Sequence record: NC_054924.1
DNA from: Escherichia phage vB_EcoM_Lutter
Strand: one strand, 5' to 3'
DNA: 64,000 bases
Position numbers and translations under genes: made by a program. Shown here piece after piece: positions 4,880 through 62,533 of the stretch (the first letter of the stretch is position 1; the number at the start of each line of letters is the position of its first letter). Under the pieces are notes generated by a model. It worked only from the letters and a program-made list of their open reading frames with translations, did not search any database and was not told the origin of the DNA.

Positions 4880-4900
4880 TCCTACTTACTCCAAGTAATA

Positions 4901-4914
4901 GGGGCCGAAGCCCC
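4901..4914 (-). terminator. Stem-loop with UUCG tetraloop after 4921..5514
   Basis: ggggccgaagcccc; minus-strand RNA is GGGGC-UUCG-GCCCC. Confidence 0.5.
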
Positions 4915-4920
4915 TTATCA

Positions 4921-43109: not shown

Positions 43110-43124
43110 TCTTTGACGATTTAA

Positions 43125-43144
43125 GGGACCTTCGGGTCCCTTTA
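43125..43144 (+). terminator. Intrinsic terminator with CUUCGG tetraloop after 23
   Basis: gggaccttcgggtccc followed by ttt. Confidence 0.6.
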
Positions 43145-46000: not shown

Positions 46001-46069
46001 GTTATCGAGTTGGTGCCATTATATACATCATTTTCTGATTGTGTTTTGTGTGCTTTCAAAATGAAGAAA

Positions 46070-46083
46070 GGGGCCGAAGCCCC
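46070..46083 (-). terminator. Stem-loop with UUCG tetraloop after hoc
   Basis: ggggccgaagcccc, same motif as 4901-4914. Confidence 0.5.
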
Positions 46084-46089
46084 TTATGA

Positions 46090-47960: not shown

Positions 47961-49472
47961 ATGACTGACATTAAAGTACATTTTTATGATTTTAGTCACG
48001 TGAGAATTGATTGTGAAGAAAGCACATTTCATGAACTCCGTGATTTCTTTAGCTTTGAAGCTGATGGGTATCGTTTTAATCCGAAGTACAAATATGGTCA
48101 CTGGGATGGACGAATCCGTCTTTTAGATTATAATCGTCTTCTTCCATTCGGTTTAGTCGGGCAAATTAAAAAGTTCTGTGATAACTTTGGCTATAAAGCC
48201 TGGATTGACCCACAGATTAACGAAAAAGAAGAATTATCAAGAAAAGATTTTGATGAATGGCTTTCTAAATTAGAAATCTATTCAGGAAATAAAAGAATTG
48301 AACCACACTGGTATCAAAAAGATGCAGTGTTCGAAGGATTAGTTAATCGTCGTAGAATTCTTAATCTTCCAACATCCGCTGGTAAATCGTTAATTCAAGC
48401 TCTGCTTGCTCGGTATTATTTGGAAAATTATGAAGGTAAAATTCTTATCATTGTTCCAACAACTGCTCTAACAACTCAGATGGCTGATGACTTCGTTGAC
48501 TATCGTTTATTCAGTCATGCAATGATAAAGAAAATTGGTGGCGGAGCATCAAAAGATGATAAATATAAAAATGATGCACCAGTCGTTGTTGGTACATGGC
48601 AAACTGTAGTAAAACAACCGAAAGAATGGTTCTCACAGTTTGGAATGATGATGAATGATGAATGCCATCTTGCTACAGGAAAAAGTATTTCATCTATCAT
48701 ATCAGGTTTAAATAACTGTATGTTTAAATTTGGTTTGTCTGGTTCATTACGTGACGGCAAAGCCAATATCATGCAGTATGTTGGAATGTTTGGTGAAATA
48801 TTTAAGCCAGTAACGACCTCTAAATTAATGGAAGATGGACAAGTAACTGAGTTAAAAATTAATAGTATTTTTCTTCGCTATCCCGATGAGTTCACTACTA
48901 AATTAAAGGGAAAAACTTACCAAGAAGAAATAAAAATTATTACTGGGCTCAGTAAAAGAAATAAATGGATCGCTAAATTAGCTATTAAGCTTGCACAAAA
49001 AGATGAAAACGCTTTTGTCATGTTTAAACATGTATCGCATGGTAAAGCTATTTTCGATTTAATTAAAAATGAATACGATAAAGTTTATTACGTATCAGGG
49101 GAAGTTGATACCGAAACCCGCAATATAATGAAAACCTTAGCTGAAAATGGTAAAGGAATAATTATAGTAGCTAGTTATGGTGTATTTTCTACTGGTATTT
49201 CAGTTAAAAATCTACATCACGTTGTTTTAGCGCACGGTGTTAAATCAAAAATCATTGTATTACAAACAATCGGTCGTGTATTACGTAAGCATGGTTCTAA
49301 GACAATAGCAACAGTCTGGGATCTTATAGATGACGCGGGCGTTAAGCCAAAATCTGCTAATACGAAAAAGAAATATGTTCATTTGAACTATCTTTTAAAA
49401 CACGGCATTGATCGTATTCAGCGCTACGCAGATGAAAAATTTAATTACGTAATGAAAACAGTTAATTTATAA
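47961..49472 (+). CDS. uvsW: UvsW DNA/RNA helicase (SF2)
   Basis: 503 aa; Walker A LPTSAGKS, DECH box MMNDECH. Confidence 0.95.
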   Translation: MTDIKVHFYDFSHVRIDCEESTFHELRDFFSFEADGYRFNPKYKYGHWDGRIRLLDYNRLLPFGLVGQIKKFCDNFGYKAWIDPQINEKEELSRKDFDEWLSKLEIYSGNKRIEPHWYQKDAVFEGLVNRRRILNLPTSAGKSLIQALLARYYLENYEGKILIIVPTTALTTQMADDFVDYRLFSHAMIKKIGGGASKDDKYKNDAPVVVGTWQTVVKQPKEWFSQFGMMMNDECHLATGKSISSIISGLNNCMFKFGLSGSLRDGKANIMQYVGMFGEIFKPVTTSKLMEDGQVTELKINSIFLRYPDEFTTKLKGKTYQEEIKIITGLSKRNKWIAKLAIKLAQKDENAFVMFKHVSHGKAIFDLIKNEYDKVYYVSGEVDTETRNIMKTLAENGKGIIIVASYGVFSTGISVKNLHHVVLAHGVKSKIIVLQTIGRVLRKHGSKTIATVWDLIDDAGVKPKSANTKKKYVHLNYLLKHGIDRIQRYADEKFNYVMKTVNL

Positions 49473-49487
49473 GGGCTTCGGCCCTTT
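49473..49487 (+). terminator. Stem-loop with UUCG loop after uvsW
   Basis: gggcttcggccc followed by ttt. Confidence 0.5.
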
Positions 49488-49979: not shown

Positions 49980-50204
49980 TTATACAACTCTCATATGCAT
50001 ATCAATGCCCATATCTTTAGAATAAAAATATTCATCAAGATATCCGGCAAATTTTCCTTTAATATAAAGGACATCTTCACCACACGGGTGGTCGGCCAGG
50101 ATACGAATATCCTGACGCTTAAGATTATGCTTTTTCATTAAGAATTGAATTTCCGTTTCAAATTCTTCTTCATAATTAAAAGCATCATCAATGCTATATC
50201 TCAT
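49980..50204 (-). CDS. Hypothetical protein (uvsY.-1-like)
   Basis: 74 aa ORF; ATGA overlap with the uvsY stop. Confidence 0.65.
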   Translation of the reverse strand: MRYSIDDAFNYEEEFETEIQFLMKKHNLKRQDIRILADHPCGEDVLYIKGKFAGYLDEYFYSKDMGIDMHMRVV

Positions 50205-57033: not shown

Positions 57034-57998
57034 TGTATTCTTTAGAGGAATTTAATAATCAAGCAATAAACGCAGATTTCCAACGTAATAATATGTTTAG
57101 CTGCGTTTTTGCAACAACTCCATCAACTAAAAGCTCTTCGTTGATAAGTTCAATTAGCAACTTTTCTTATAATAACTTGGGCCTAAATTCAAATTGGTTA
57201 GGATTAACTCAAGGTGATATTAATCAGGGAATTACCACGCTAATTACAGCTGGCACACAAAAACTAATAAGAAAATCAGGAGTCAGTAAATATCTTATTG
57301 GTGCCATGAGTCAACGTACTGTCCAGAGTTTATTAGGCTCATTTACAGTCGGTACATATTTAATCGATTTCTTTAATATGGCGTATAATTCATCTGGATT
57401 GATGATATATTCTGTAAAAATGCCAGAGAATAGATTATCTTATGAAACTGACTGGAACTATAATTCTCCTAATATTCGTATAACTGGGAGAGAATTAGAC
57501 CCTTTGGTTATTTCATTTAGAATGGATTCAGAAGCTTGTAACTATCGTGCAATGCAAGACTGGGTTAACTCTGTTCAAGACCCAGTAACTGGACTACGTG
57601 CTTTGCCGCAAGATGTCGAGGCAGATATTCAGGTTAATCTTCATTCTCGTAATGGATTGCCTCATACTGCGGTGATGTTCACCGGATGCATTCCAATATC
57701 AGTGAGCGCTCCTGAGTTATCATATGATGGAGATAACCAAATAACTACATTTGACGTTACTTTTGCGTATAGAGTGATGCAGGCTGGAGCAGTTGATAGG
57801 CAAGCTGCGCTTGAATGGCTTGAATCTGCTGCTATAAATGGTATTCAAAGCGTTCTCGGAAATAGTGGAGGTGTTACTGGACTATCTAATTCGCTTTCAC
57901 GACTCAGTAGATTAGGGGGAACTGCAGGAAGCATTTCAAACATTAATACTATGACAGGAATTGTCAATTCGCAAAGTAAAATATTAGGAGCAATATAA
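57033..57998 (+). CDS. 54: Baseplate tail-tube initiator gp54
   Basis: 321 aa; synteny. Confidence 0.9.
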   Translation: MYSLEEFNNQAINADFQRNNMFSCVFATTPSTKSSSLISSISNFSYNNLGLNSNWLGLTQGDINQGITTLITAGTQKLIRKSGVSKYLIGAMSQRTVQSLLGSFTVGTYLIDFFNMAYNSSGLMIYSVKMPENRLSYETDWNYNSPNIRITGRELDPLVISFRMDSEACNYRAMQDWVNSVQDPVTGLRALPQDVEADIQVNLHSRNGLPHTAVMFTGCIPISVSAPELSYDGDNQITTFDVTFAYRVMQAGAVDRQAALEWLESAAINGIQSVLGNSGGVTGLSNSLSRLSRLGGTAGSISNINTMTGIVNSQSKILGAI

Positions 57999-58002
57999 CA
58001 AC

Positions 58003-58020
58003 GGGGACCTTTCGGTCCCC
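58003..58020. terminator. Bidirectional intrinsic terminator after 54
   Basis: ggggacctttcggtcccc followed by a T-rich run. Confidence 0.6.
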
Positions 58021-58026
58021 ATATTT

Positions 58027-58317
58027 TTATTTGCGGAATGAAATGAAAGCAGAAACTGAAGCAACTAAACTGTCTTCAATATAAACTTCAATTTTTACCG
58101 GAGCTTCTGACTCAAATTTACCTGTTACTACACCCTGAAAAATACTTTCAGTCTGTTCTGGCTTTGAAAAATTTTCAGAAGGAAAAATTCCGAACTTTTT
58201 ATCTGTTCCGAAAATTTTGATAAATTCATCATAAACTGCTTCGTTAAAAGCATTATCAGCAGGAATAACGCCTTCAACTACAAGTTCTTGACCTAAAAAG
58301 CGTAAAGAAGATTTCAT
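58027..58317 (-). CDS. Hypothetical protein (alt.-3 region)
   Basis: 96 aa ORF with ATG start. Confidence 0.55.
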   Translation of the reverse strand: MKSSLRFLGQELVVEGVIPADNAFNEAVYDEFIKIFGTDKKFGIFPSENFSKPEQTESIFQGVVTGKFESEAPVKIEVYIEDSLVASVSAFISFRK

Positions 58318-58349
58318 TTTGTGTTCCTCATGTTATGTCAGTAAGACTA

Positions 58350-58735
58350 CTATAACACAACACGAGGGACTTGTAAACTACATTTTGAACTTTTTAGTAC
58401 GCGTAATAGGCATGCGTCAATTTTATACTGTTTCATTGTTTGAAGAGCAGTATCAAAAACAGCATTAATGACGCCAATTGGATTTCCACCCAAGTTTTTA
58501 AGTTTAACTAATGATAGTTTCTCATTAACACCTATCATTACGATATGCATCATTTTGTCGCCTGGTTTAACGTTTTATCTGTATCACCGCCAGAGGTGTA
58601 TGTACAAAATCTAAATCCAGGAAGCACGCTTTCTTCGCCGGCTTGAATAGCAAAAATTTGTGGTATTTTATGCTTAGGATTTAAGTTAACAACCGGCGCC
58701 GAAGCGCCGTCAAATAATTATGTAATAAGTTCCAT
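58350..58735 (-). pseudogene. Degenerate tandem copy of the alt N-terminal region
   Basis: Begins 3 nt after the alt stop with ATGGAACTTATTACA (MELIT) then in-frame TAA; downstream LNPKHKIPQIF...FCTYTSGGDTDK and, after a frameshift, MMHIVMIGVNEKLSLVKLKNLGGNPIGVINAVFDTALQTMKQYKIDACLLRVLKS parallel alt residues ~1-130. Confidence 0.6.
58694..58709 (-). terminator. GC-rich stem-loop with UUCG tetraloop just downstream of alt
   Basis: cggcgccgaagcgccg; minus-strand RNA is CGGCGC-UUCG-GCGCCG; lies within the alt pseudo-copy at a position with no counterpart in alt. Confidence 0.45.
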
Positions 58736-58738
58736 GAT

Positions 58739-60835
58739 TTATCCTTGAACGAACTTGTAAGGCATGTTTGCAATATCTATGCAAGACGCAATAATTCCAA
58801 GAGATGATTCTACTTTCTGTTTAACATTTGATGAAACAAATGATGCAAAGTCAACTCTGTCTTCTATTTCAATATCACCTGTCATTGCAACCAATTCACC
58901 AGTTTCCATTAAATGGTCTCCATCATAGATTACCGATTCGGTGAGCTCTTCCGTGGTCATAACTTCAGCTTGAATGAGTTTTGTATTATTAGATGTTGTT
59001 CCGTCATTATTAGAAGCATCAGTTATTTTATTAACTTTGACCATCAATCCACGCGGTAGAATAACTTCAGCTTCTGTTGCTATTCCGAGACTTCCTGGAT
59101 ATACAACATTAACTTTATGAGCTCCATCAATTGCCCATCCTATTTGAACTTTAACGTATTCAGGATTTTCTTTATACGCTCTTATTTCGTTTGGATTAAT
59201 AGTTATTCCTTCTTCATTTTTATCAACTGTTAATTCATTGCGAGCTTCTGGTTCTAAAAGACCAATACCAGCATGTGTAATTCCAAAACGTCCAAAAATG
59301 ATAGGAGTTAAAGAAGTAGATACAAAATTTCTGAAATAGAATACTTTATTTTTAACTAGTGCTTCGTATATAGGAGCAGTCATACTTTGAGCACGATAAA
59401 CTGTAATGCCTTCTGGTATACGATCACCATTTTCAAAAGCAGAATCTAAATTAGTTATAGCAGCTTCAATTTCTTTTTCACTCATTACTTCATAACGTTC
59501 TGGATCATAACGACCCAAAAGAAGATTATTGATGTCAGTATATCCTGAACCGCAATACTCTCTAATGCCACGCTTTTGTGATGGAGTATATTTAGAACCA
59601 TCACGGGCAATAGTAATATCAATCATTGGACCTGCACCAATTCCAGAGAAACTATAAATCATTCTTTTGAGGAATTTAGTTTTTGTCGCGTTCCAGGAAT
59701 TTTTAGTTATTTCTTCCCAGACTTCATCTGGCTGTCCTTTACGGGTTTTATTATGTTTATCAAGCCAAGTATCTTTATATTCTTCAAATAATTGATTAAC
59801 AGCTGCTGCGTATTTCTCTAAACATTTTATTGAAGTAGTCGGTTCATTTTTAATCGCATTAAGAATTACATCTTTAATTTTTTCAGAAACTTCATTAACC
59901 TCACTTTTTGAAAAGAATTTATAGTCATAATGAAGTTCATCTGCAGTTCCTTCGGCAATGATTTTTGCTGCCTTAGTTTTAGAAGCTAATGAATTAATTC
60001 CAATTTTCATTTCTTCTGCTTCGGGAATTAAAGGTGCAGTAGCTGGTTTATTAAAATTAGCTGCTGTAGATTCATACTTCTGGAATAATTCACTTTCAAA
60101 TCTAGAAGACTCTAATGATTGACTTTGTGCAATTGCTCTACGGGAAATTTTAACTTTAACGATTACAGCTTGGTCAGAACGTTTATCATTTTCTTGTGCA
60201 ATAGATGCTGCAATTGCCTCATTTTTAGTTACTTGAGCTCCAGTATCTTTATTGATATAAACATCACCGACCTTCGATTCAACTTTAGTAAAGAGCTCAG
60301 TACTAATTTCCGGAACCCCTGGAATGTCTTCTAGTGATACATTTTTGCGATGTATAAGAATATATGCATACTTTTTATCATAATCCCAGAGTTCCTTAAG
60401 AAGGACGTATCTGCCACCTGAACGACTACGGATAAGTCTATCAGCAATAACTTGAATTTGTCGAGCTTGACCAGCAGTTTTAGACTTAAGAATACGGAGC
60501 ATACAGGCATCAATTTTATACTGACGCATTGTTTGCATTGCAACAGTAAAAACCGAATTGATATAATTAATTGGGCTTGGACCAAGACCTTTCAATTTAG
60601 CAATTGAACCTTTAGCGGTTAATGTAAAAGGAACAATATGCATCATTTTATCGCCCATCTTTAAATCGCGATTAGTATCACCTCCAGATGTATAGGTACA
60701 TAAACGAAAACCTGGTTGTTCAATTGCGTCATCAACATGAACTGAAAAAATTTGTGGTATTTTCTTCTTTGGATTTAAGTTTGTAATTGGAAGAGTAGTA
60801 TCTTCGTCAAATAATTCTGTAATTAGTTCCATCAT
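58739..60835 (-). CDS. alt: Alt-type ADP-ribosyltransferase (injected, modifies host RNA polymerase)
   Basis: 698 aa; size and position (between 54 and DNA ligase) as in T4; N-terminus MMELITELFDED. Confidence 0.85.
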   Translation of the reverse strand: MMELITELFDEDTTLPITNLNPKKKIPQIFSVHVDDAIEQPGFRLCTYTSGGDTNRDLKMGDKMMHIVPFTLTAKGSIAKLKGLGPSPINYINSVFTVAMQTMRQYKIDACMLRILKSKTAGQARQIQVIADRLIRSRSGGRYVLLKELWDYDKKYAYILIHRKNVSLEDIPGVPEISTELFTKVESKVGDVYINKDTGAQVTKNEAIAASIAQENDKRSDQAVIVKVKISRRAIAQSQSLESSRFESELFQKYESTAANFNKPATAPLIPEAEEMKIGINSLASKTKAAKIIAEGTADELHYDYKFFSKSEVNEVSEKIKDVILNAIKNEPTTSIKCLEKYAAAVNQLFEEYKDTWLDKHNKTRKGQPDEVWEEITKNSWNATKTKFLKRMIYSFSGIGAGPMIDITIARDGSKYTPSQKRGIREYCGSGYTDINNLLLGRYDPERYEVMSEKEIEAAITNLDSAFENGDRIPEGITVYRAQSMTAPIYEALVKNKVFYFRNFVSTSLTPIIFGRFGITHAGIGLLEPEARNELTVDKNEEGITINPNEIRAYKENPEYVKVQIGWAIDGAHKVNVVYPGSLGIATEAEVILPRGLMVKVNKITDASNNDGTTSNNTKLIQAEVMTTEELTESVIYDGDHLMETGELVAMTGDIEIEDRVDFASFVSSNVKQKVESSLGIIASCIDIANMPYKFVQG

Positions 60836-60868
60836 ATCCTCTCTAGTGTTTATTCTATTTATAAAATT

Positions 60869-60886
60869 AAAGGCCCGAAGGCCTTT
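60869..60886 (-). terminator. Stem-loop with UUCG loop upstream of alt
   Basis: aaaggcccgaaggccttt. Confidence 0.45.
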
Positions 60887-61073
60887 AGTAATCTAGTGGT
60901 AAGAGAGTACGATATATTTCAAACTTTGGTCCTTTTTCATAGGCATCAAATGTTTCTGTAAATTTATTATAAGCGTATGCATCTACAAATTCGAGAATGA
61001 CTTGTGATACAGAAGTAGAAACATCTCCACCTTCTTTTTGAGCAATGACAATTGTTTCTAAGTAAGCTTTCAT
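60885..61073 (-). CDS. Small hypothetical protein
   Basis: 62 aa ORF; ATGA-type overlap with the gene 30 stop. Confidence 0.5.
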   Translation of the reverse strand: MKAYLETIVIAQKEGGDVSTSVSQVILEFVDAYAYNKFTETFDAYEKGPKFEIYRTLLPLDY

Positions 61074-62533
61074 AGACCAGTTACCTCATGAAAATCACCA
61101 AATACATCCTCGAATGTATTAGCTTTAGTTTTATCTTCACGTAAACGAATCGCAATCGGAAGAAATAATTTAACGTAATCAGTGCGGCCATCAGATTTTA
61201 ACCAACCGTTGCATTCGCACTCTAGAATTTTTCCAATATAATAATTTTGGTTTTCCATAATGCGAGTACGGTCAAGTTCATGTGATTTTACACCGGCTTT
61301 ATCTTTTAAGCCTGAACCAGCATTTACCTTAATTTTTCCACACTCTGACTCAAGAATAAATCCACCCGCTTTAGTAGGGTCTTTACGGTGAGGATAAATT
61401 CCTACAATTTTTAAATCAACATCAATTACTTCTTTAAATTTATAGAGATTTTTTGAACGAGCATTTTCCCATAATCCATCGATATTTTTGAGAATAATAC
61501 CTTCAAGACCTTGGTCAATATACTTTTTATAAATTACCTTAGCTTCATCTAGGTTATTTACTACCTGGTTTTCAATTAAAATTACTTTATCATAGCCTGA
61601 TGTCATTTGTTCTAGTTTAGAAAAACGTACATCATATTTTAAACGAAACGCCGGAAGACCGTATATTTCTACCAACGGGACATAATCCCAGACCTGAAAC
61701 TTCATGCATTGAGCTTCTTTTTCGGAAATGGTTCCCTTTAAAGATTTATTAGCGATTCCATTAGAAGTAGTACGTGATTCAGCTACTTCGGCGAATTCTT
61801 TGGCTTTACTAATTTCAGGATAAGCATCAAAAAGAAAATCTAGGCCTTCTGGCTCCTTTTTAACTTGCTCATGGTATACCAATTCGCCATCAATTAACAC
61901 GCCTTCTGGATGAATCTGGCGGGCTTCAGCGGTCATTTTGATTAATTCTTCCTTAAGAAGATCTAATCCTAGATATTCATTACCGGCTCGTGATAAAAGA
62001 CGAACATCATCTAATTCATCACCTCTGACTTCGGCAAAGCACCGAGCCCCATCAGCTTTTAACTGGGCAAAGGCTGGAAATTTGATATTCTTATTAATGC
62101 CTTTTTCATCATAAGAACTTGCCAGCATTTGAGGTTGTTCAGGAATTAAACCTGGCCAAACTTTGTTTGCAATAGATACTGAAGCACCACATTCAAGGTC
62201 TCGCATCATCACTCGACGCAAAACTTCAGCATCATCTTTTTTACCATCGGTGATATATCCAGTTAATTCCTCAATTGCTGCATTTCCAGTCAATTTCCGA
62301 GTAGCTAATGTGAATTCAATGAAGTCAAGCATATCGGTAAGAGTCAACATTCCAAAACCCTGGGTAGCAATACCAGGTTTAGGCCATTTCTTGATATAAT
62401 ACTGCAGCCCACGAGAATAAGTCAGACGATATACTCGTTTAAGCAATTCATTATCTTTATTCTTTTCAAGAATTGCTTGCTTCTGCTTAGTTGAACCAAT
62501 AGATGCTATTTCGTTCAGAATTTTAAGAATCAT
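61070..62533 (-). CDS. 30: ATP-dependent DNA ligase
   Basis: 487 aa; adenylation motif AQLKADGARCFA (KxDG); size as T4 ligase. Confidence 0.95.
   Translation of the reverse strand: MILKILNEIASIGSTKQKQAILEKNKDNELLKRVYRLTYSRGLQYYIKKWPKPGIATQGFGMLTLTDMLDFIEFTLATRKLTGNAAIEELTGYITDGKKDDAEVLRRVMMRDLECGASVSIANKVWPGLIPEQPQMLASSYDEKGINKNIKFPAFAQLKADGARCFAEVRGDELDDVRLLSRAGNEYLGLDLLKEELIKMTAEARQIHPEGVLIDGELVYHEQVKKEPEGLDFLFDAYPEISKAKEFAEVAESRTTSNGIANKSLKGTISEKEAQCMKFQVWDYVPLVEIYGLPAFRLKYDVRFSKLEQMTSGYDKVILIENQVVNNLDEAKVIYKKYIDQGLEGIILKNIDGLWENARSKNLYKFKEVIDVDLKIVGIYPHRKDPTKAGGFILESECGKIKVNAGSGLKDKAGVKSHELDRTRIMENQNYYIGKILECECNGWLKSDGRTDYVKLFLPIAIRLREDKTKANTFEDVFGDFHEVTGL

Follow-up and report, generated by a model that had tools for sequence, protein, structure and literature searches.

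The window, a 64,000-nt stretch of Escherichia phage vB_EcoM_Lutter (NC_054924.1), carries on its minus strand between 57,000 and 62,600 the DNA ligase gene (gene 30), alt.1, alt, the stretch 58350-58738, a 96-aa ORF and a bidirectional terminator. On the plus strand, genes 54, 48 and 29 (baseplate) converge on these alt-side genes. A megablast search using 57990-58900 as a query matched 501 phage records, nearly all of which are Tequatrovirus, indicating that the window is derived from a T4-like phage; the best matching relatives were FJ1, BYEP02, JEP6 and SG1 (98.7-99.3%). A late-promoter motif (TATAAATA, 60863-60856) is found upstream of alt, and alt.1 is followed by a CUUCGG terminator. 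The features of the alt locus discussed below are:

58739-60835, minus strand: alt, the packaged ADP-ribosyltransferase (ORF of 698 aa, T2-type allele; Pfam ADPrib_exo_Tox, E = 1.9e-36)
58350-58735, minus strand: remnant of a second Alt paralog, equal to T4 alt.-1 plus alt.-2 (nucleotide identity to T4, T2 and RB68)
58718-58735, minus strand: cut-down alt.-1 start, MELIT followed by a TAA (58720-58718) that replaces Glu-6
58694-58709, minus strand: C(UUCG)G hairpin CGGCGC-UUCG-GCGCCG, 30 nt past the alt stop
58573-58576, minus strand: A4 run (A5 in intact paralogs), the frameshift between the alt.-1 and alt.-2 frames (alignments)
58350-58553, minus strand: 67-aa ORF equivalent to T4 alt.-2, consisting of old paralog residues 62-116 and an out-of-frame tail SKCSLQVPRVVL
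58389-58397, minus strand: deletion junction with the one remaining copy of the 9-nt direct repeat CTAAAAAGT
58349-58377, minus strand: predicted sigma-70-type, T4-early-like promoter of alt.-3 (TTTACA, 17 nt, TATAGT, with an upstream TG)
58027-58317, minus strand: alt.-3 (96 aa, DUF5498), the downstream neighbour outside the duplication

A preliminary description of the stretch had presented it as a decayed tandem duplicate of the alt 5' region. The repetition itself is real: in a blastn search of 58350-58738 against the whole 64-kb window the alt 5' end was the sole match above noise (70.4% over 203 nt, E = 7e-21, and 74.6% over 59 nt, E = 4e-5), and a MAFFT alignment of the two regions was also made. 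As described, the copy begins 3 nt past the alt stop (alt TAA at 58741-58739, copy ATG at 58735-58733). Similarity had been placed at alt residues about 1-130; it is present over this part of the protein but ends at alt residue about 118. Codon 6 is indeed a premature TAA (58720-58718) where alt has GAA, the frameshift ahead of the MMHIV segment appears in the alignment as a 1-nt gap in the A-run at 58576-58573, and an ORF of 67 aa survives on the minus strand (58350-58553). The perfect 6-bp GC stem with a UUCG loop was found exactly at 58709-58694 on the minus strand (CGGCGC-TTCG-GCGCCG), where it stands in for a dissimilar alt segment that is 3 nt longer.

Comparison with the alt-proximal ORFs of T4 matched the stretch to T4 alt.-1/alt.-2. 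Between alt and gene 54, T4 (NC_000866) contains the ORFs alt.-1 (T4p199, 61 aa), alt.-2 (T4p198, 67 aa) and alt.-3, and 58350-58735 is ~97% identical to T4 123065-123450 (mean column identity in a four-way alignment). Codon 6 is GAA in T4 and e11/2 and TAA in the window and JEP6. In the part of the T4 RefSeq notes that concerns these ORFs, alt.-1 and alt.-2 together are traced to an old duplication of the beginning of gene alt that was interrupted by a stop codon, and both are listed as paralogous alt duplications by Nolan 2006 (PMC1524935). The stretch is this already annotated remnant, and the feature as such is already known.

A sensitive search with 58350-58738 alone showed that most Tequatrovirus records (including T2, RB68, wV7 and HP3) match positions 1-350 at 92-97%, and that the matched region in those records lies under a full-length CDS annotated as 'Alt-like RNA polymerase ADP-ribosyltransferase'. 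In T2 and RB68 a 685-aa ORF with an ADPrib_exo_Tox domain (Pfam) begins 3 nt past the alt stop, and over its first ~350 nt the window stretch agrees with the 5' end of this intact paralog at 95-97% of positions. The intact paralog shares 41% identity with Alt overall and about 54-76% across the first ~250 residues, and both proteins start with MELITE. The existence of two paralogous Alt-like proteins has been remarked upon before (PMC13600099). The earlier suggestion that a second ADP-ribosyltransferase gene once began here holds, as an intact 685-aa Alt paralog starts from the same ATG in T2, RB68, P8 and most Tequatrovirus records; that of P8 likewise has an ADPrib_exo_Tox domain.

The sequence CTAAAAAGT occurs twice in the 2,058-nt intact gene of T2 and RB68, at nt 340 and nt 2039, 1,699 bp apart, the second copy being located 11 nt ahead of the stop. 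T4 and the window contain a single CTAAAAAGT (58397-58389 in the window), preceded by the sequence that lies before the first repeat and followed by that which lies after the second, and the 3' flank of the remnant is exactly the last 11 nt plus the stop of the intact paralog. With a junction-specific query the fused junction was found in 88 records (89 by the megablast search); the remaining records match from the repeat onward only. The 1,699 bp that were lost include the ADPrib_exo_Tox domain, the catalytic domain that in a functional Alt-like ADP-ribosyltransferase has the R / S-T-S / E-x-E motifs. As 1,699 is not a multiple of three, the 67-aa ORF ends in the odd tail, which reads past the old stop into the alt.-3 promoter. 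The view of the stretch as a duplicate of the alt 5' region has to be given up on this point: the duplication took in the whole gene, and the 1,699 bp were deleted afterwards. Moonvirus CF1 also has two tandem alt genes, of which the second is nearer to Alt2 than to Alt, so that the whole-gene duplication is older than the genus and the T4-type stump is derived. At the upstream repeat, P8 (L015) and IMGVR_UViG_2974787500_000001 (L011) have CTAAAGAGT in place of CTAAAAAGT, which would lessen the microhomology available for a T4-type deletion.

Downstream of the junction, T2 and RB68 have the promoter sequence of alt.-3 as well, past the stop codon of their intact paralog. In the window, the end of the 67-aa ORF overlaps this early-type promoter. 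In T4, alt.-3 belongs to the early class for RNA and protein alike (PMC9697503 Table S2), and mutants of T4 with a C-terminal extension of alt.-3 escape the CmdTAC defence (PMC11618068). Staphylococcus phage SAJK-IND (MG010123.1, 31849-31896) gave a 48-nt match, at 97.9% identity, to query positions 342-389 around the alt.-3 promoter; it sits at the end of a 32-kb record and is probably due to contamination or a chimeric assembly.

To follow the decay of the remnant, variation in the first 116 codons was compared among 15 loci (5 intact copies and 10 remnants), using the intact copies as reference frame. The five intact copies differed by 29 synonymous changes and 1 nonsynonymous change, with 0 stops and 0 indel events, whereas the ten remnants displayed 13 synonymous changes, 10 nonsynonymous changes, 1 stop (E6*) and 3 indel events (synonymous against nonsynonymous plus stop, intact against remnant: Fisher p = 2e-4). 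The remnant indels are a shared loss of one A from the A-run, a 7-nt duplication in HY03 and the loss of one T from a T-run in IME537, and the HY03 and IME537 frameshifts each break the 67-aa ORF itself, independently. The A5 run is reduced to A4 in most junction carriers; SG1 keeps A5 despite having the deletion and the TAA, so that the lesions are not strictly nested, although frameshifts in homopolymer runs (IME537, SG1) may be sequencing errors. An IMG/VR scan yielded 5 contigs only, and allele counts were therefore taken from the GenBank phage collection. Based on exact 51-mers, 43 phage records have the codon-6 TAA allele and 439 have GAA (482 in total). Carriers of the TAA allele include JEP6, SG1, HY03 and FJ1, and all TAA carriers that could be cross-checked against the megablast list are of the deletion type. 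The stop, the frameshifts and the relaxed constraint relative to the intact copies agree with the earlier characterization of the copy as decaying.

The head protease gp21 removes six N-terminal residues of Alt at the motif ITE-6 (PMC5694885). The stop of the window lineage falls exactly on this cleavage-site glutamate, a coincidence to which we give no meaning. Programmed bypass or read-through, by analogy to the gene 60-like combination of a TAA and a hairpin, was considered and rejected: the TAA is found only in remnants with the deletion and usually the frameshift, which leave nothing downstream to decode.

In the reading that we regard as very probable, the stretch is the pseudogene stump of a full-length tandem Alt paralog that is transcribed 3' of alt and of which the hairpin is the one piece likely to be active. 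An ancestral T-even phage carried two full-length tandem Alt-type ADP-ribosyltransferase genes, 3 nt apart and both starting with MELITE. Recombination or replication slippage between the CTAAAAAGT repeats then removed 1,699 bp with the whole catalytic domain, so that codon 116 runs on, in the wrong frame, into the few codons left at the end of the gene. Subsequent loss of one A from the A5 run split the remainder into alt.-1 and alt.-2, and in the sub-lineage of the window phage codon 6 changed from GAA to TAA. These steps are shown by the genome comparisons; the loss of protein function and the role of the hairpin are inferred. The hairpin is older than the deletion, as it was already present in codons 9-14 of the intact gene. 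The remnant appears to have persisted without a functional protein, as a transcribed 3' trailer of alt.

Two other explanations concern the origin of the stretch and its coding capacity. The wording of the T4 RefSeq notes and of Nolan 2006 implies a partial duplication in which only the first part of alt was copied and then acquired a stop and a new start, the T2-type gene being unrelated or later. This would fit the T4 data taken alone; we consider it extremely improbable in view of the 95-97% identity of the remnant to the intact T2/RB68 paralog against only about 70% to alt, the 3' flank that equals the last 11 nt and stop of that paralog, the breakpoints at a 9-nt repeat found twice in the intact gene and the related second gene in another genus (Moonvirus CF1). 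The T4 'duplication of first part' would accordingly better read as a deletion derivative of a full-length paralog. It is also very unlikely, in our judgement, that the stretch encodes a working small protein, with the 67-aa Alt.-2 (in T4 also the 61-aa Alt.-1, whose MELITE end serves head targeting and cleavage in Alt) acting as a stand-alone Alt N-terminal module that might serve as packaging competitor, decoy or regulator. Most remnants, among them those of the window, T4, e11/2, JEP6 and SG1, have kept an open 67-aa frame, a good Shine-Dalgarno sequence (AAGGA) precedes the alt.-1 ATG, and in T4 the stop of alt.-1 overlaps the start of alt.-2 (ATGA), a layout typical of translational coupling. 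The region is also transcribed in T4, where alt.-1/alt.-2 RNA is classed as 'middle', like that of alt (PMC9697503 Table S2). Against these points stand the 11 nonsynonymous or stop changes next to 13 synonymous ones in the remnants (1 next to 29 in intact copies), the independent frameshifts of HY03 and IME537 that break the ORF, the codon-6 stop in 43 records that would also abolish coupling to alt.-2, and a C-terminal tail that is out-of-frame read-through into a promoter. The 67-aa ORF matched no Pfam family, whereas the intact T2 paralog has a match. The Alt.-1 and Alt.-2 proteins were undetected in T4 infection; small proteins are easily missed by mass spectrometry, yet other small T4 proteins were detected in the same proteomics (PMC9697503 Table S2).

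The hairpin had been described as inserted into the copy, which proved incorrect: the same bases are already present inside the intact paralog CDS of T2, RB68 and P8, where they encode D-G-A-S-A-P. It is identical and present once per genome at 15 of the 15 loci, its wobble positions are invariant, and it is contained within the 51-mers of the 482 records; since the whole 5' region is highly conserved, the invariance of these 16 nt is not informative alone. The isolated hairpin consists of 6 G-C pairs (-11.2 kcal/mol). It lies +30 nt from the alt stop with the UUCG on the sense strand, and the ORF that follows alt is dead in the window, while in T2-type phages the hairpin is intragenic. In T2-type and T4-type phages it is read through by translating ribosomes. 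The codons involved are rare (GGC 14%, TCG 6%, GCG 8%, CCG 14%; genome third-position GC 24%); for this peptide, the combination of codons used has a joint probability of about 1e-5. With random synonymous coding of D-G-A-S-A-P-V, some stem of at least 6 bp arises with a probability of 0.12.

The window contains 7 UUCG hairpins with a stem of at least 5 bp, where dinucleotide shuffles give an expectation of 0.64. Of the tetraloops that sit on stems of 6 bp or more in the window, UUCG is the most frequent, tied only with CGAA, which is the loop of the same palindromic UUCG hairpins viewed on the opposite strand. The six other UUCG hairpins are located at 4900-4915, 43123-43142, 46068-46085, 49471-49486, 50097-50114 and 60868-60887. 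Five of these six are C:G-closed and lie -2 to +14 nt from a same-strand stop codon, and for those five and the hairpin downstream of alt the UUCG is on the strand of the preceding stop codon (6/6). The sixth (50097-50114) is A:U-closed, has a predicted energy of -6.8 kcal/mol and lies inside the ORF 49980-50204.

An intrinsic-terminator scan did not call the hairpin downstream of alt because it lacks a U-tract; its tail is GUUGUUAAC, with 4 U in any 8-nt window. The detection of alt.-1/alt.-2 RNA in T4 indicates that transcription or RNA survival continues past the hairpin. The second alt gene of Moonvirus CF1 lacks a hairpin at the corresponding site, and Gelderlandvirus STML-198 has a single alt. 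A search of 57900-61100 against Rfam at a permissive threshold gave three sub-threshold chance matches, none of them at the hairpin. A literature search for Term-seq or other 3'-end maps of T4 returned nothing usable, and UUCG hairpins are not discussed in Uzan and Miller 2010.

The predicted pair probability of the hairpin in the window depends on context, being 0.92 with 30 nt on either side, 0.74 with 60 nt and 0.05-0.09 with at least 200 nt; for T4 and RB68 it stays at 0.5-0.8. In window contexts of at least 200 nt, a long-range helix with 58626-58643 is predicted to be better by 0.4-1.7 kcal/mol. The region 58626-58643 (minus strand) is a second GC-rich patch, AGCCGGCGAAGAAAGCGU, which is specific to the second paralog and can pair over ~15 bp with the hairpin region; when the window and T2 are folded with long contexts, this pairing prevails over the local hairpin. 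This patch varies at four wobble positions among genomes, which suggests that the competing helix is probably incidental, and we have not taken it as selected. Co-transcriptional folding would also favour the local stem.

Within the pseudogene reading preferred above, the hairpin would most likely work at the RNA level, where it may mark the end of the alt mRNA by blocking 3'-to-5' exonucleases or by terminating weakly; from its class, position, orientation and rare codons it may plausibly be a leaky 3' barrier or stabiliser of alt mRNA. With a gap of only 3 nt between the two genes, such an element would have evolved within the first codons of the downstream paralog. That the hairpin is functionless, being a by-product of self-complementary G-A-S-A-P codons or of local GC that persists because the region is young and conserved, is possible though somewhat doubtful. 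The chance of 0.12 for a stem of this length, the absence of a kept hairpin in Moonvirus, the missing U-tract, the competing long-range fold and the non-significance of zero variants in 16 nt given the overall conservation are all compatible with it. On the other side, the rare G/C-ending codons maximise stability and create an exact C(UUCG)G loop (about 1e-5), no other part of the N-terminus is less like alt than this segment, which also has a length difference of one codon, it resembles the other post-stop UUCG hairpins of the window in form, strand and position, and wobble sites are free to vary in the GC-rich patch nearby whereas those of the hairpin are invariant. A stronger claim, to which we attach little probability, is that selection maintains the hairpin, alone of all parts of the stump, as an RNA element by which the late alt mRNA has its 3' end defined or protected. 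In the sub-lineage of the window, the codon-6 stop would then halt ribosomes ~10 nt before the stem, so that the hairpin would no longer be melted by translation and would be freed as a dedicated 3' UTR element. If true, it would document how an RNA structure within a coding region can survive the gene that contained it.

Other variation was observed at the alt locus. The window Alt (58739-60835) is 90-100% identical to T2 Alt (L005:3907-6000) throughout, and T4 Alt (L003:5455-7503) is 27-63% identical to the window Alt over residues ~251-600 with both ends at 98-100%; the central/catalytic module of alt has been swapped between lineages. Tequatrovirus KAW1E185 (L016:4504-6561) has a single hybrid alt that is alt-type to about residue 600 and Alt2-type in the last ~90 residues, pointing to an unequal crossover between tandem paralogs and an independent loss of the second gene. 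The second alt of Moonvirus CF1 (L017:4440-6562) is annotated as two overlapping CDS and the alt of Pu-Krd-SF5 (L014:1459-3506) as two CDS with a 200-nt gap; these may be either further breaks of the locus or sequencing/annotation errors. With a microhomology deletion, an unequal-crossover hybrid and a swapped catalytic module, the alt locus is a recombination hot spot.

What is added here to the known remnant is its exact origin (a 1,699-bp microhomology deletion in a paralog that T2 keeps), the evidence for neutral decay and the finding that the hairpin is older than the death of the gene. The feature is real but ordinary, and its significance lies mostly in annotation tidying: the T4 'hypothetical proteins' Alt.-1 and Alt.-2 would best be treated as one pseudogene, to which the many database entries of the 67-aa ORF labelled 'RNA polymerase-ADP-ribosyltransferase' would also belong. 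T4 lacks a putatively packaged and ejected enzyme that its close relatives carry, which may matter for work on host ADP-ribosylation and anti-defence. The hairpin offers a small testable case of an RNA structure within coding sequence.

Among known systems, T4 alt.-1/alt.-2 shares with the window the position 3 nt after alt and before alt.-3 on the same strand, as well as the hairpin, the A4 frameshift, the deletion junction and the 67-aa ORF. T4 alt.-1 is an open 61-aa ORF, whereas alt.-1 of the window is 5 codons long owing to the GAA to TAA change at codon 6, an allelic difference within the same remnant; the window alt is the T2-type allele, unlike that of T4. The 685-aa second Alt of T2, RB68, P8, 6phi13 and most Tequatroviruses has the same start and the same first ~116 codons with the hairpin, and its locus shares the downstream promoter and alt.-3 with the window. 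Compared to this gene, the window lacks 1,699 bp and has gained a frameshift and a stop, leaving what is best seen as a stump and not a gene. In KAW1E185 the second paralog was lost at the same locus, as in the window, but one intact gene without a stump remains. C(UUCG)G hairpins were reportedly first described in T4 mRNA by Tuerk et al. in 1988. These hairpins, summarised in PMC4371310, have in common with that of the window the C:G-closed UUCG, the GC stem, the location on the transcribed strand and, more loosely, the position past a stop codon; the window contains five other examples. The window hairpin differs from this T4-type class in that it lies 30 nt past the stop instead of within 14 nt, and in that it resides in present or former coding sequence and is spelled in rare codons.
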